This document shows, one piece after another, positions 8,467-61,446 of a stretch of 64,000 bases of DNA; the first letter of the stretch is position 1; every line of letters begins with the position of its first letter. The notes beneath the pieces were generated by a model. It was not told the origin of the DNA. It did not search any database and saw nothing but the letters and a program-made list of their open reading frames with translations. Where the stretch lies: IMG/VR virus record IMGVR_UViG_3300020045_002727, positions 1 to 64,000 of that record; one strand, 5' to 3'. The DNA comes from a virus. Its lineage: Duplodnaviria; Caudoviricetes. Position numbers and translations under genes: made by a program.

Positions 8467-8895
8467 ATGTTAGAAGAATTATACAGAGAGGCACTTGGTT
8501 GTAAAACAACAGCCAAGTTTTCCTCTATAAACAGTAAATCAGTTTTATATAAAGGTTTTAAGATGTCTCTAAACTTGGAGACATTTGAATACAATTTATT
8601 AGACATTCGTAAAACAGATTTTTATTCAAGTGTTAATGATAGTGATTTTGCTCTTATAGTAGAGCATGGTTTTATTAAGGGTTGTGATTTAATAATGAAA
8701 CAGAGGGATGAAGAAAGAATTAAATCCTACACTAGGAGACTTGAAAAGCTATACACACTCAAAGCAGAGTACAAAAAAGATGTAATTAAAAACAAAAAAA
8801 GACTTGGTATTTGTGAGGCTAATATCTCTGAAACAATAGATTTGTTATTCTTCTATAAAGCTAGGTTAATTCAAAACAAAGAGAAGTATGAATAG
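8467..8895 (+). CDS. hypothetical protein
   Basis: ORF downstream of promoter. Confidence 0.7.
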   Translation: MLEELYREALGCKTTAKFSSINSKSVLYKGFKMSLNLETFEYNLLDIRKTDFYSSVNDSDFALIVEHGFIKGCDLIMKQRDEERIKSYTRRLEKLYTLKAEYKKDVIKNKKRLGICEANISETIDLLFFYKARLIQNKEKYE

Positions 8896-22858: not shown

Positions 22859-22946
22859 CTAGGTGTGAAGGCAATTGGAAGCCGACTCGTTTTGGAAACG
22901 AGAAGTAGTTAATAGCTCAATGCAGGTTCGAGTCCTGTCACTTAGA
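22859..22946 (+). tRNA. tRNA-Pro(TGG) with long variable arm
   Basis: Acceptor CTAGGTG/CACTTAG, CTCGT-TTTGGAA-ACGAG, ~19-nt variable region, T arm GCAGG-TTCGAGT-CCTGT. Confidence 0.85.
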
Positions 22947-22955
22947 CAATATTTT

Positions 22956-23027
22956 GCTCCCATCGTCTAGCGGTTAGGACATCAGGTTTTCGACCTGAGA
23001 ACGAGGTTTCGACTACCTCTGGGAGTA
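22956..23027 (+). tRNA. tRNA-Glu(TTC)
   Basis: GCTCCCA/TGGGAGT, TCAGG-TTTTCGA-CCTGA. Confidence 0.9.
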
Positions 23028-23072
23028 CATAGAGATACTTAGCCTTTAACTCTTTAAAAAGCAAGGTACTTT

Positions 23073-23144
23073 TGCACCATCGTATAACGGCTAGTACAAT
23101 TGCCTTTGAAGCAATTAGCATAGGTTCGATTCCTTTTGGTGCAA
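23073..23144 (+). tRNA. tRNA-Gln(TTG)
   Basis: TGCACCA/TGGTGCA, ATTGC-CTTTGAA-GCAAT. Confidence 0.92.
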
Positions 23145-23151
23145 CAAACAT

Positions 23152-23226
23152 GGTGATTGTAGCTGAATTGGTTAAAGCCTCTGATTGTGATTCAGAAGAT
23201 TAAGGGTTCGAGTCCCTTCTTTCACA
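23152..23226 (+). tRNA. tRNA-His(GTG)
   Basis: TCTGA-TTGTGAT-TCAGA; encoded G-1; two T.T mismatches in acceptor stem. Confidence 0.82.
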
Positions 23227-23231
23227 CTAAA

Positions 23232-23313
23232 GCTGATGTGAGTTAAAAGCGAATGGCAGAGCATCTCCCCTTAGAAGGGAGGACTTTTGAGGGTTCAAAT
23301 CCCTCCAACAGCA
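23232..23313 (+). tRNA. tRNA-Leu(TAG), atypical (short variable region, enlarged D region)
   Basis: GCTGATG/CAACAGC, CTCCC-CTTAGAA-GGGAG, GAGGG-TTCAAAT-CCCTC. Confidence 0.75.
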
Positions 23314-23318
23314 CTACT

Positions 23319-23390
23319 TTCTGATTAGTTCAATGGATAGAACAGGTGATTACGAATCATCAAATACAAGTTCGAGTCTTGTATCGGGAA
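23319..23390 (+). tRNA. tRNA-Arg(ACG)
   Basis: TTCTGAT/ATCGGGA, GGTGA-TTACGAA-TCATC. Confidence 0.9.
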
Positions 23391-23395
23391 CAATA

Positions 23396-23474
23396 GGGGT
23401 CATGGTGAAACGGTAAACACGCAGGTCTTAAAAATCTGTGCTTCGGCTTGTGGGTTCAACTCCCACTTTCCCCA
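23396..23474 (+). tRNA. tRNA-Leu(TAA)
   Basis: CAGGT-CTTAAAA-ATCTG, GC-TTCG-GC variable arm; two acceptor mismatches. Confidence 0.85.
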
Positions 23475-23500
23475 CAAAAGTTAAAATATTCACAAAATAT

Positions 23501-23531
23501 TTGCACATGTAAATTATTTGTAATATCTTTG
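23501..23531 (+). promoter_or_regulatory. internal promoter in tRNA array 1
   Basis: TTGCACA at 23501, TATCTTTG at 23524-23531, 20-nt spacer. Confidence 0.8.
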
Positions 23532-23541
23532 CTTCATAATA

Positions 23542-23573
23542 AAACGAATAGTTCAGTTGATAGGGAACAATTT
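23542..23573 (+). repeat. 32-nt dispersed repeat, copy 2
   Basis: AAACGAATAGTTCAGTTGATAGGGAACAATTT. Confidence 0.9.
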
Positions 23574-23579
23574 AAAATT

Positions 23580-23652
23580 TGGTATATAGCTCAATTGGTA
23601 GAGCATCTCCCTGATACGGAGAAGGGTATAGGTTCGAGTCCTATTGTACCAA
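23580..23652 (+). tRNA. tRNA-Ile(GAT)
   Basis: TGGTATA/TGTACCA, TCTCC-CTGATAC-GGAGA. Confidence 0.93.
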
Positions 23653-23667
23653 CAATATTAAATAAAG

Positions 23668-24168
23668 ATGATTAGAAATTCAAAACAAGTAGAGTTAACA
23701 AAATTAGCTTATAATAAAGGATATAGAGTTTTAGAAAATGGAGATGTGATAGGACTTAGAGGTAAGAAATTAAATCTTTTTGAAAACAGTAAAGGATATT
23801 ATTGTTTCACTATAAGAAGAAAAGATAAATGCCCTACTTATACATTTGTTCATAAATTAAAAGCCTATCAATTATTTGGAGATGAATGTTTTAATGAAGG
23901 AATTGTAATTAGACATTTTAATGGTAACAATAAAGATAACTCAGATATTAATATTAAAATTGGAACTCAATTTGATAACATGATGGATATGACACCATTA
24001 CAGAGAAAGTTAAATGCGAGTAGTCCTATTCATAATCATTCTGAAATATTGAAAGATAGAGAATCTGGAATGACATATAGAGAAATACAAGAAAAATACA
24101 ATATTTCATCTAAAGGAACAATTAGTTTTATTGTAAACAAATCAATGAAGAAAGAAAAACTAAAATAA
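23668..24168 (+). CDS. HNH homing endonuclease inserted in the tRNA array
   Basis: FVHKL, IRHFNGNNKDNSDINI..GTQFDN HNH-like core; C-terminal HTH. Confidence 0.8.
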   Translation: MIRNSKQVELTKLAYNKGYRVLENGDVIGLRGKKLNLFENSKGYYCFTIRRKDKCPTYTFVHKLKAYQLFGDECFNEGIVIRHFNGNNKDNSDINIKIGTQFDNMMDMTPLQRKLNASSPIHNHSEILKDRESGMTYREIQEKYNISSKGTISFIVNKSMKKEKLK

Positions 24169-24180
24169 ATGTTAAAATAG

Positions 24181-24211
24181 TTGCAAGGTAATATTTTTTG
24201 ATATATCTTTG
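24181..24211 (+). promoter_or_regulatory. promoter restarting the tRNA array after the HNH gene
   Basis: TTGCA at 24181, TATCTTTG at 24204-24211, 20-nt spacer. Confidence 0.8.
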
Positions 24212-24222
24212 TACCATAATAT

Positions 24223-24306
24223 AGCGAGGTAGTCAGTAGATGGTAGCTTGTGAGGCTCATAACCTCATGTCGAAAGACCCCGTGGGTTCGAGTCCCACTC
24301 TCGCAA
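24223..24306 (+). tRNA. tRNA-Met(CAT), initiator-like, with long variable arm
   Basis: A1.A72 mismatch, TGAGG-CTCATAA-CCTCA, variable arm GTC-GAAA-GAC. Confidence 0.8.
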
Positions 24307-24311
24307 CAAGA

Positions 24312-24368
24312 TTTGTCATCGTTTTTTAAAATTAAGGATTAATAAGTGACGGCTCGGAAAGACGAGCA
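24312..24368 (+). ncRNA. structured RNA, candidate skipping-rope-like motif
   Basis: GTCAT/GTGAC stem around an AT-rich linker, then GCTCG-GAAAGA-CGAGC; family name from memory only. Confidence 0.5.
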
Positions 24369-24371
24369 ATT

Positions 24372-24443
24372 GGTCTATTGGAGTAGTGGTAACTGTACTA
24401 GCTTGTCACGCTAGGGTCGGGGGTTCGATTCCCCCATAGACCG
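24372..24443 (+). tRNA. tRNA-Asp(GTC)
   Basis: GGTCTAT/ATAGACC, CTAGC-TTGTCAC-GCTAG, G73. Confidence 0.93.
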
Positions 24444-24482
24444 CAAAAGTTTTATAAGATTTTCCTTTGATAAAATCTAAAC

Positions 24483-24556
24483 GCCTTAATAGCTCAGTCG
24501 GTTAGAGCATCTCATTTGTAACGAGAAGGTCGTAGGTTCAAACCCTACTTTTGGCT
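24483..24556 (+). tRNA. tRNA-Thr(TGT)
   Basis: Loop TTTGTAA; acceptor GCCTTAA/TTTTGGC with two T.T mismatches. Confidence 0.85.
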
Positions 24557-24640
24557 CTATTTTAGAAAACATTAATCCTATGGTCGGATGTGAGAACCAT
24601 ATAGCCGTATTTAAAAAACTCACAATGTTTTCTAAAAGAG
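24555..24640 (+). ncRNA. uncharacterised pseudoknotted RNA
   Basis: 14-bp closing stem TTTTAGAAAACATT/AATGTTTTCTAAAA; inner TATGGT/ACCATA hairpin whose loop can pair with CTCAC and CCG. Confidence 0.6.
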
Positions 24641-24642
24641 TA

Positions 24643-24755
24643 AGCTCGATTAGTGTAATGGTAACACGCAGCAAATCCCAGCTGAAAGAGAGTCATAGAG
24701 TAGAAATAATCACTTTATGATGAAACATAACAGGTTCGATTCCTGTATCAAGCTC
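24643..24755 (+). ncRNA. tRNA-Gly-derived tRNA-like RNA with aberrant anticodon loop and ~45-nt insertion
   Basis: GCTCGAT/ATCAAGC plus U73, GTGT/ACAC D stem, CAGC-AAATCCCA-GCTG, extra 9-bp hairpin, perfect T arm. Confidence 0.7.
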
Positions 24756-24802
24756 AAATCGATTGGTTGTGATGACGAGGAGGTCGATGCCTCAATTACA
24801 AT

Positions 24803-24874
24803 CGTGTGTTCGTCTAGTGGTCAAGGACGGTGACAAGTGCGTTGCAAACATGGGTTCAAATCCCATACACACAT
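24803..24874 (+). ncRNA. tRNA-shaped RNA with 6-nt anticodon-position loop
   Basis: GTGTGT/ACACAC acceptor, GTCTAGTGGTCAAGGAC D arm, GTGAC-AAGTGC-GTTGC, ATGGG-TTCAAAT-CCCAT. Confidence 0.7.
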
Positions 24875-24880
24875 CAAATA

Positions 24881-24981
24881 GTCTATTAATAAAAGTTATA
24901 TCAATGACACATAACAACGTGATTAACTTAGGATATGAGAATGTAAGTTCTCCACATAGTAAACCGATAAAATTAATAGAC
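24881..24981 (+). ncRNA. uncharacterised multibranch RNA
   Basis: GTCTATTAAT/ATTAATAGAC closing stem; inner AAGTTA/TAACTT and GAGAA/TTCTC hairpins. Confidence 0.45.
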
Positions 24982-24985
24982 ATAT

Positions 24986-25058
24986 ATCCTTATAGCTTAA
25001 ATGGAAAAGCCTCTGATTTCTAATCAGACGAGTACAGGTTCAAATCCTGTTAGGGATA
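24986..25058 (+). tRNA. tRNA-Arg(TCT)
   Basis: ATCCTTA/TAGGGAT, TCTGA-TTTCTAA-TCAGA. Confidence 0.9.
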
Positions 25059-25062
25059 CAAA

Positions 25063-25161
25063 GGGAGATGATAGCGATTTTGGGAAAGGTGAGTTGACTC
25101 CTCATCCGTATTCAGGTTGCCACCATGCAACTGGTGCTGAGTATGTAGCTACATATCTCCC
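25063..25161 (+). ncRNA. uncharacterised GC-rich junction RNA
   Basis: GGGAGAT/ATCTCCC closing stem; GTGAG/CTCAT and TATTCAG/CTGAGTA plus GTTGC/GCAAC arms. Confidence 0.55.
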
Positions 25162-25168
25162 CTATTAG

Positions 25169-25242
25169 TGCCATTTAGCTCAGTTGGTTAGAGCAGTCCC
25201 CTCATAAGGGAAAGGTCACAGGTTCGAGTCCTGTAGTGGCAA
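25169..25242 (+). tRNA. tRNA with CAT anticodon (elongator Met or Ile2, not resolved)
   Basis: TGCCATT/AGTGGCA, TCCC-CTCATAA-GGGA. Confidence 0.88.
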
Positions 25243-25432
25243 CAAAAAGTCAGGGTAACACCTGATTTAATTTTAAGTATTAATGTAAAAAAATTTACAG
25301 TTATGTATAGTAAGATAATTAAAGGTAAGAAAGTTAAAACTATAAAGTATTCTAAACCATACAGTAGTAGTCAACTATCAGCAATGATGGAATTAACTGA
25401 TATATTTGAACGTAAAATAAAAAAGCTCAGAA

Positions 25433-60762: not shown

Positions 60763-60765
60763 TTG

Positions 60766-60836
60766 AAATCATATTGGGAGTCGAACCCAAACCTTTAATT
60801 TTGCAGACTAAATGCTTAACCGTCAGCCTTATGATT
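60766..60836 (-). tRNA. tRNA-Cys(GCA)
   Basis: AATCATA/TATGATT, TTAGT-CTGCAAA-ATTAA, U73. Confidence 0.88.
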
Positions 60837-60838
60837 TG

Positions 60839-60911
60839 TGGGGCAGGTGAGAATCGAACTCACTCCTCTGGTTTTTCAGACCAACGCTTCTACCAAGTTA
60901 GCTTCTCCCCC
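60839..60911 (-). tRNA. tRNA-Phe(GAA)
   Basis: TTGGT-CTGAAAA-ACCAG, GTGAG-TTCGATT-CTCAC. Confidence 0.9.
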
Positions 60912-60962
60912 AGTATAGCCTTAATCAGTTATAAACAATGTTTATAGCCTTTTAAGGTTTTG

Positions 60963-61031
60963 CACAACCCCAAGGAATCGAACCTTGTCCTACACTTTTG
61001 GAGAGTGTTTGGCTGCCATAGCCTGAGAAGT
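60963..61031 (-). tRNA. tRNA-Trp(CCA)
   Basis: ACACT-CTCCAAA-AGTGT; weak acceptor stem ACTTCTC/GGGTTGT. Confidence 0.78.
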
Positions 61032-61036
61032 AGTTG

Positions 61037-61108
61037 CTGCTCCTAATGGACTCGAACCATTATAAACTGATTAACAGTCAGCCGTAATTACCTTTATACG
61101 AAAGAGCA
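61037..61108 (-). tRNA. tRNA-Asn(GTT)
   Basis: TGCTCTT/AGGAGCA, GCTGA-CTGTTAA-TCAGT, G73. Confidence 0.92.
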
Positions 61109-61113
61109 TTTTG

Positions 61114-61198
61114 CAGAAAGTAAAGGTCTCGAACCCTATGCGAATAAACGCACCACAATCTTAGCAGGATGTGCTGACACCTAGTCAGTCTACTTTCT
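61114..61198 (-). tRNA. tRNA-Ser(GCT)
   Basis: AGAAAGT/ACTTTCT, loop CTGCTAA, variable arm GTGCG/CGCAT; imperfect anticodon stem. Confidence 0.82.
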
Positions 61199-61203
61199 AT
61201 TTG

Positions 61204-61289
61204 CAGAAGATAGAGAAATCGAATCCCCATCAGGTACTACCCGATGCCATGGGGTTCAAGCCCACTTTGTCACCTTGACGGTATCTTCT
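61204..61289 (-). tRNA. tRNA-Ser(TGA)
   Basis: AGAAGAT/ATCTTCT, GTGGG-CTTGAAC-CCCAT, long variable arm. Confidence 0.88.
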
Positions 61290-61365
61290 ATAATCGTATC
61301 GAGACTTCTGACGTAAGCAGTGTATATAATACTTACCGAATTAACTCCCTTTATGAGACTCAACG

Positions 61366-61446
61366 TGGGGAGGTGTGGACTCGAACCACTCCCTTGCGGA
61401 CGGATTTTACAGACCCGTTGCTAAATCCAATTAGCTTTACTACCCC
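61366..61446 (-). tRNA. tRNA-Tyr(GTA)
   Basis: ACGGGT-CTGTAAA-ATCCGT, CC-GCAA-GG variable arm. Confidence 0.9.

Follow-up and report, generated by a model that had tools for sequence, protein, structure and literature searches.

A tRNA-derived gene that has lost decoding and carries a fifth arm in the tRNA array of a metagenomic phage

One gene in the tRNA array of a phage assembled from a metagenome is derived from a tRNA and has lost decoding. It lies in the window analyzed here, the first 64 kb of a 74,135-bp virus record (IMGVR_UViG_3300020045_002727) that has direct terminal repeats, is rated complete, and has a G+C content of 34%. The element occupies positions 24644-24755 of the plus strand, with G1 at 24644 and U73 at 24754; a preliminary description had begun it one nucleotide too early, at 24643, and had ended it at 24755, which holds (24754 or 24755). 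Its minimum free energy (MFE) fold over the whole stretch is a five-arm cloverleaf (-27.6 kcal/mol, z -3.0), and 1 of 200 shuffled sequences folded as well. The origin that we favor, at somewhat less than an even chance, is recombination in a tRNA array that a homing endonuclease has shuffled, with the element as a by-product that does not decode and is tolerated.

Fold and parts of the element

The arms and linkers of the element are as follows.

24644..24650, plus strand: 5' strand of the acceptor stem, GCTCGAT, forming six of seven pairs with 24747-24753, with a C4.A69 mismatch
24653..24667, plus strand: D arm, GTGT/AATGGTA/ACAC, 4 bp with a 7-nt loop containing GG, preceded by U8 and A9
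24669..24684, plus strand: hairpin 1, CAGC/AAATCCCA/GCTG, at the anticodon-arm position, with a 4-bp stem and an 8-nt loop
24685..24692, plus strand: 5' linker, AAAGAGAG, unpaired in the MFE fold save for its last G, which forms a G.U pair with a U
24693..24720, plus strand: hairpin 2, the fifth arm, TCATAGAGT/AGAAATAATC/ACTTTATGA, inside the variable region
24721..24729, plus strand: 3' linker, TGAAACATA, unpaired in the MFE fold
24730..24746, plus strand: T arm, ACAGG/TTCGATT/CCTGT, 5 bp with a canonical T loop
24747..24754, plus strand: 3' strand of the acceptor stem, ATCAAGC, followed by the discriminator U73; CCA is not encoded

Both the D arm and the T arm are perfectly paired, and the nucleotides that make the tertiary contacts of the elbow (U8, A14, G18, G19, U54, U55, C56, and A58) are undamaged; G26 lies between the D arm and the anticodon-position stem. 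The third acceptor pair is U3-A70 rather than G3-C70. The preliminary description, which took every arm except the anticodon-position loop to be intact, was right about the D and T arms but not about the acceptor stem, with its C4.A69 mismatch, or the anticodon-position stem, which has 4 bp.

The lower half of the element carries at least two separate changes. The 8-nt loop AAATCCCA on the 4-bp stem has an A at position 33, so that U33 is absent, and the loss of decoding described earlier is borne out; folded alone, hairpin 1 reaches -4.9 kcal/mol (z -2.3). The variable region is 45 nt long (24685-24729) and contains the 9-bp hairpin already recognized in the preliminary description, of which eight pairs are Watson-Crick and one is G.U, closing a 10-nt loop. 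The MFE fold extends this hairpin to 10 bp, followed by a bulged A and 2 more bp, and it is flanked by single-stranded linkers of 8 and 9 nt. Taken alone, the insert folds far more stably than shuffled sequences on the plus strand, at -9.8 kcal/mol (z -4.1), a value that 0 of 200 shuffles reached. On the minus strand, where its two G.U pairs are lost, it reaches only z -1.2, and 23 of 200 shuffles did as well. The genome contains no second copy of the element or of its insert, and a repeated mobile element was therefore rejected as the source of the insert.

The acceptor-T stack and the D/T elbow are the parts of a tRNA that are read by RNase P, 3' trimming enzymes, and CCA-adding enzymes, and they are intact in the element. 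Because it lies in a tRNA operon and keeps these processing features, the element is probably transcribed and matured, and the product would be a stable five-armed RNA of ~115 nt. Such an RNA would be unable to pair with a codon on the ribosome.

Decoding, splicing, and the glycine label

The element was not called by ARAGORN under default settings, and the Rfam tRNA model RF00005, whose gathering score is 29 bits, gave no match over 24560-24990 even at E values up to 10; 15 other tRNAs of the window score 29 to 74 bits with the Rfam tRNA model. When introns were allowed, ARAGORN reported a tRNA-Met with an 18-nt intron, a poor, forced call with two stem mismatches. The anticodon-position arm also differs from that of a functional tRNA-Gly(UCC), in which a 5-bp stem carries a 7-nt loop that has U33 and, at positions 34-36, UCC.

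The preliminary description had noted that excision of the insert to give a canonical tRNA would make the gene an intron case. Deleting every possible single block from the element, in search of a 5-bp stem, a 7-nt loop with U33, and a variable loop of 4 to 5 nt, gave a score of at most 2.5, whereas the same deletion test gave 6.5 to 6.75 in 15 of 22 insert-bearing metagenome tRNAs. Since no single excision restores a normal anticodon arm, the element is not an intron case; taking out the 45-nt insert alone still leaves a 4-bp stem and an 8-nt loop without U33.

Those insert-bearing tRNAs came from a metagenome scan for the D arm of the element followed by a distant T loop, which returned 90 loci, among them about 22 distinct single tRNA-like genes with an insert of 42 to 60 nt. 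The loci lie on low-G+C contigs, several of them tRNA dense (10 to 19 tRNA genes per locus), and in the 15 restorable genes the removal of one block after position 28 or 29 leaves a perfect 5-bp stem and a 7-nt loop with U33. The class with inserts at position 28/29 (L025, L029, L031, L041, L042, L050, L051, L055, L060, L072, L075, L080, L082, L083, L088, and L099) carries the insert in the 5' strand of the anticodon stem, with anticodons GTG, TTG, TGG, CAT, TCC, and TCA. By eye, in L031, L051, and L072, the 3' part of the insert pairs with a strand made up of the end of exon 1 and the first bases of the insert. Many of the rumen inserts (L025, L029, L051, and L052) have a covarying hairpin, GTAAC/GTTAC or GTATC/GATAC, followed by TTACAATATCAT. 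In one rumen family (L025, L029, L050, L052, L054, L075, and L088), the insert is the same and the stem is CGGAA/TTCCG, and the loops vary (TTGTGGT, TTTTGGT, TTTGGGT, and 8- to 9-nt loops such as ACTATGGA), which looks like anticodon remolding or loop diversification.

Such genes give some reason to consider that the element is a working decoder, either through removal of the insert by protein-dependent splicing or through the reading of a four-base codon by the 8-nt loop in the manner of frameshift-suppressor tRNAs. Many metagenome phage tRNA arrays carry 42- to 60-nt inserts whose removal yields perfect tRNAs, "enigmatic" tRNA introns have been described in Lak megaphages (Devoto et al. 2019, PMC6784885), and 8-nt loops occur in otherwise good tRNAs of the insert-bearing arrays and of a more distant relative of this phage (G001); the phage itself has no other tRNA-Gly. 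Like the element, the Lak tRNAs and the insert-bearing tRNAs of rumen and other phage-like arrays have an insert of tens of bases and lie in phage tRNA arrays, and many have the same D arm. The element differs from them in having no removable block and in carrying its insert in the variable region rather than after position 28/29. The low deletion score, the 4-bp stem and U33-less loop that remain when the insert is removed, and the lack in this genome of an RNA ligase or polynucleotide kinase-phosphatase (PNKP) gene that could rejoin the halves also weigh against decoding, which we regard as improbable.

Class II tRNAs, tRNA-Sec, and allo-tRNAs, of which long-armed forms were reportedly described by Mukai et al. 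in 2017, resemble the element in having an extra stem-loop between the anticodon and T arms. Their arms are ~10 to 25 nt long, follow almost directly after the anticodon stem, and accompany a normal 7-nt loop; in contrast, the element has a 45-nt region with linkers of 8 and 9 nt and a loop that cannot decode, and the 45-nt variable region, the long linkers, and the non-canonical loop rule out a class II tRNA or allo-tRNA.

A number of other identities were considered and set aside. A group I intron needs ~200 nt or more in the anticodon loop, whereas the insert is 45 nt long, lies in the variable region, and has no Rfam match. A tmRNA has tRNA-like ends around a tag reading frame and pseudoknots; ARAGORN found none in the window, and the element is only 112 nt long; YrlA and bacterial Y RNA (RF02553) gave no Rfam match at the gathering score or at E values up to 10. 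TTTATGA (24714-24720) was tried as a loop with a UAU anticodon, and its flanks give only 3 pairs. A k-mer search gave no source sequence to support AAATCCCA plus GCTG as a relic of the 3' half of a T arm. Box C/D-like UGAUGA and CUGA words are judged coincidental because they overlap the stems of both hairpins.

The preliminary description assigned the element to tRNA-Gly(TCC) and held that glycyl-tRNA synthetase (GlyRS) identity had been kept. The features named in support of that match are largely present: G1-C72, C2-G71, U73, the D and T arms, and the CAGC/GCTG stem. The bacterial GlyRS acceptor identity set consists of G1-C72, C2-G71, G3-C70, and U73, of which the element has G1-C72, C2-G71, and U73, with U3-A70 as its third pair. 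The same two pairs and U73 occur in the phage's own tRNA-Thr, and in the closest relatives, L016 and L113, the true tRNA-Gly(TCC) genes have A73, A3-U70, and a quite different sequence. The 15-base D arm GTGTAATGGTAACAC is generic; in other phage arrays it recurs in tRNAs for Gln, His, Met, Pro, and Gly and in suppressor tRNAs, and it is present in a contig binned as Chitinophagales. The remaining Gly-like traits are the CAGC/GCTG stem, which recurs in the tRNA-Gly of G001, and the UCC triplet in the loop. Compared with tRNA-Gly(UCC) as modeled in RF00005, the element has in common G1-C72, C2-G71, U73, UCC in the loop, and normal D and T arms; it differs in its 8-nt loop without U33, 4-bp stem, 45-nt variable region, U3-A70 pair, and lack of a model score. 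Retained GlyRS identity thus seems at best weakly indicated by the sequence.

Orthology with the relatives' tRNA-Gly was likewise not found, as those genes sit in a different slot and pairwise alignments to the element were only gapped and unconvincing. The element should not be annotated as a tRNA-Gly. The preliminary observation that the window contains no normal tRNA-Gly can be extended to the entire genome: in the 74,135 bp, ARAGORN found normal tRNAs for none of Gly, Ala, Val, and Lys, and the phage is to be counted as lacking all four.

The array and its exchanged cassette

The surroundings of the element comprise the following features.

22859-25243, plus strand: tRNA array 1 (ARAGORN)
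60765-61446, minus strand: tRNA array 2 (ARAGORN)
23668..24168, plus strand: open reading frame of 166 codons for an HNH endonuclease (PHROG HNH families)
24447..24879, plus strand: swappable cassette of tRNA-Thr, long hairpin X, the element, and tRNA-like Y, replaced in L016
24558-24643: hairpin X, 86 nt, directly after tRNA-Thr, with a perfect 14-bp outer stem (z -3.3) and no Rfam match
24803-24875: tRNA-like Y, with a C1.A72 mismatch, a wobble-rich stem GTGAC/GTTGC, and a 6-nt loop AAGTGC

The closest comparison comes from L016, a bovine-metagenome contig of 2,468 nt that was found by placing contigs from public sequencing runs on 24200-25300. It is identical to this phage over 24323-24446 and 97% identical over 24880-25299, with the cassette flanks 96 to 100% identical overall, and 24447-24879 is swapped for 234 other bases consisting of a spacer, an odd tRNA-Pro, and another tRNA-Thr. 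Another contig from the same sample, L118, encodes an exonuclease with 100% identity to that of this phage, whose gene lies immediately upstream of the array, on which account the two phages are taken to be near-identical outside the array. The L016 array reads Pro, Glu, Gln, His, Arg, Leu, Ile, Gly(TCC), Met, Asp, Pro (with an aberrant loop), Thr, Arg(TCT), and Met. Its second tRNA-Pro, at 1372-1443, has no U33 and can be drawn with a 5-bp stem and the loop GTGGA or with a 4-bp stem and CGTGGAG. Alignment of the L016 spacer to the element region was not significant.

The HNH open reading frame fills the slot in which L016 has a normal 74-nt tRNA-Gly(TCC) directly after tRNA-Ile, the spacer beyond it is common to L016, and the Ile-Gly succession also occurs in G001 and L113. 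The arrangement suggests that a tRNA gene was replaced in a homing-type event. The wider relatives G001 (ligase 42% identical) and L113 (exonuclease 68% identical) have the order Ile-Gly-Met-Asp-Thr-Val-Arg(TCT)-Met; because Val stands at the corresponding place in that order, the element occupies the tRNA-Val slot of the wider family, which in this phage is filled by X, the element, and Y. The preliminary description had named as a refutation relatives with a normal tRNA-Gly and a recent random insertion in this copy. A normal tRNA-Gly does exist in the relatives, but it is not the same gene as the element because it has another slot and another sequence.

Elsewhere in the array, two more genes were replaced between the near-identical phages: Pro measures 89 nt in this phage and 74 nt in L016, and Met measures 85 nt compared with 74 nt. 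The array is thus evidently a hot spot of recombination, and a homing-type endonuclease resides in it. The genes concerned, tRNA-Pro at 22859-22947 (89 nt) and a CAU tRNA at 24223-24307 (85 nt), have extra variable arms that are absent from their L016 counterparts; in the CAU-anticodon tRNA, the variable hairpin is GUC-GAAA-GAC. Beyond the window, at 68120-68216, there is a 97-nt His-like gene with a 27-nt variable region containing a 5-bp hairpin. The spacers between Thr, Val, and Arg in L113 are similar in design to hairpin X, with a long A+T-rich outer stem. A Pfam search of ten neighboring open reading frames found no tRNA-related enzyme.

The record is metagenome assembled, the arrays have T-loop and D-arm words in common, variants of the array coexist in similar samples, and 24570-24828 is covered by no independent public run. 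An assembly chimera, in which fragments of different tRNA genes were joined and the element exists in no phage, would account for these points. Against it, the acceptor strands match each other from 100 nt apart, the insert gives a clean hairpin, the record has terminal repeats and is rated complete, and a coherent five-arm fold at z -3 is not expected from a chimeric join, and we hold such an artifact to be very unlikely.

A by-product of array recombination draws on much of this comparison. A homing endonuclease would shuffle the array, recombination would leave behind a crippled tRNA-derived gene, and the phage would not depend on it. Its nearest relative, L016, lacks the element and has a normal tRNA-Gly instead; the HNH gene sits in the Gly slot and X, the element, and Y in the Val slot, several other genes of the array are also remodeled, and the element is an orphan in the searched collections. 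The helices have defects (the C4.A69 mismatch and the 4-bp stem), and neither an excision nor an Rfam model recovers a tRNA. Set against this origin are the undamaged upper half, with the changes confined to at least two separate ones in the lower half, and the structured hairpin with G.U pairs that forms on the sense strand only, since random filler is not expected to fold so well. Two more non-decoding tRNA-shaped genes in the same genome, a look-alike of the same design as one of them in the relative L112, and the aberrant-loop tRNA in the L016 cassette likewise count against it, as does the chance that orphan status is overstated.

The tRNA cluster of phage T4 offers a described parallel. 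It contains the stable RNAs species 1 and 2 (rnaC and rnaD), which are non-decoding and have tRNA-like ends that allow processing; it also holds the homing endonuclease gene segB, and species 1 and 2 are conserved among T-even phages. Compared by description, species 1 and 2 and the element are all non-decoding small RNAs in a phage tRNA array, and the T4 cluster with segB is similar to this array with its HNH gene. Conservation among T-even phages sets species 1 and 2 apart from the orphan element, and a relationship in sequence is not expected.

Homologues, look-alikes, and candidate roles

Near and distant BLAST searches against 50,697 phage records (INPHARED) gave generic tRNA matches only and no close phage. 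Searches with exact or gapped patterns drawn from both halves of the element (5' and 3'), its anticodon-position hairpin, and one conserved flank found no homologue in IMG/VR (seven patterns), JGI metagenomes (two), or GTDB genomes (one); three matches to GCAGCAAATCCCAGCTG were due to chance, lying outside any tRNA, and the other matches were different tRNAs with a common D arm. A covariance model of the element run over ~520 kb of phage arrays gave matches driven by the D arm and T loop, with the insert never convincingly aligned. Local alignment of the core to 25 insert-bearing tRNAs gave best scores of 24 and 22, which are not significant given that the 95th percentile of the null was 23. 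Homologues of the DNA ligase at 61 to 70% identity have no tRNA array beside the ligase, and the contigs from public runs include no homologue of the element.

The element thus appears to be an orphan in the searched collections, a status that may be overstated, as very close records may be missing from them. With no homologue in any searched collection, there is no covariation to examine, and conservation and covariation are the only computational route to selection for the element. The preliminary description had argued that selection was implied and had looked to conserved homologues with a covarying hairpin; none was found in IMG/VR, JGI metagenomes, GTDB genomes, or public runs, and a near-identical sister phage lives without the whole segment, so the argument for selection is not supported.

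Further tRNA look-alikes are present in the same genome and in its relatives. In tRNA-like Y, the anticodon-position arm is 16 nt long, as in the element. At 68542-68614, beyond the window, a tRNA look-alike has a perfect 6-bp stem capped by GAAA, and L112, a relative with an exonuclease 79% identical, has at 8483-8553 a look-alike with a perfect 6-bp stem and a UAAU tetraloop. These two sequences differ throughout and have the same design, an indication that an anticodon-less mimic is conserved in this phage family. Two IMG/VR phage contigs, L120 (at 3381) and L121 (at 5203), contain a ~60-nt look-alike without an anticodon arm, inside a 22-tRNA array, in which the D and T arms are joined by the 11 bases GCAGAGAGGCG; it has 23 bases of the 5' half and the T loop in common with the element. 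The anticodon-less look-alikes of the family resemble the element in their intact upper half, in having an anticodon-position arm that is 16 nt long or absent, and in their location in or near tRNA arrays, but in them that arm is a short capped stem or is missing altogether, and there is no fifth arm.

Genes for RNA-ligase-like proteins and PNKP are found in the relatives L115 (8616-10882, directly after the tRNA array) and L006 (10174-12457), and their placement beside the array hints that tRNA cleavage is contested in this phage group. The relatives' RNA ligase, PNKP, and sequestin-like proteins gave no tblastn match in this genome.

It is possible, and in our view only somewhat less likely than a by-product, that the element is a selected non-decoding tRNA mimic that is processed, CCA tailed, perhaps charged, and bound by proteins that recognize tRNA shape. 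Possible partners would include host tRNA-targeting defense nucleases, modification enzymes, a synthetase, or an aminoacyl-transferase, with the fifth arm serving as a handle or distinguishing mark. The changes spare the upper half and the elbow and are limited to the decoding half, and the hairpin is stable on the sense strand only (z -4.1 compared with z -1.2). Three non-decoding tRNA-shaped genes occur in one 74-kb genome, one of them with a GAAA-capped perfect stem; the relative L112 has the analogous tetraloop-capped look-alike of different sequence, and the anticodon-arm-less look-alike of L120 and L121 has the same 5' 23 bases and T loop. Both alternative cassettes pair an aberrant tRNA with a normal tRNA-Thr, and relatives have an RNA ligase and PNKP beside the array. 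However, the lack of a homologue leaves no covariation or conservation in favor of a mimic, a near-identical phage lives without the element, and the acceptor stem has a mismatch. The loop is not close enough to any known nuclease or synthetase target for a partner to be named, and the RNA ligase and PNKP genes are absent from this phage. There is also a detection bias in the comparison: because tRNA finders need an intact upper half and report only look-alikes that have one, the tidiness of the look-alikes is partly an artifact of detection.

A broader form of this proposal, which we consider possible but doubtful, is that the family keeps fast-evolving non-decoding tRNA mimics in swappable array cassettes. 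Through its intact upper half such a mimic would be processed and bound by host proteins that recognize tRNA, defense nucleases for example, while its altered lower half and fifth arm would bar it from translation and suit it to act as a decoy, sponge, or carrier. If this is true, rapid exchange of cassettes would explain the lack of a detectable homologue.

If the element is only a crippled tRNA, as its origin as a recombination by-product would have it, it is an example of how shuffling driven by a homing endonuclease breaks and replaces the genes of a phage array; here, two near-identical phages differ by an entire tRNA-Gly gene and a cassette of four elements. If selection instead maintains it as a mimic, it joins what seems to be a large and barely described class of non-decoding tRNA-shaped phage RNAs, and the partners of such RNAs could be host defenses that target tRNA.
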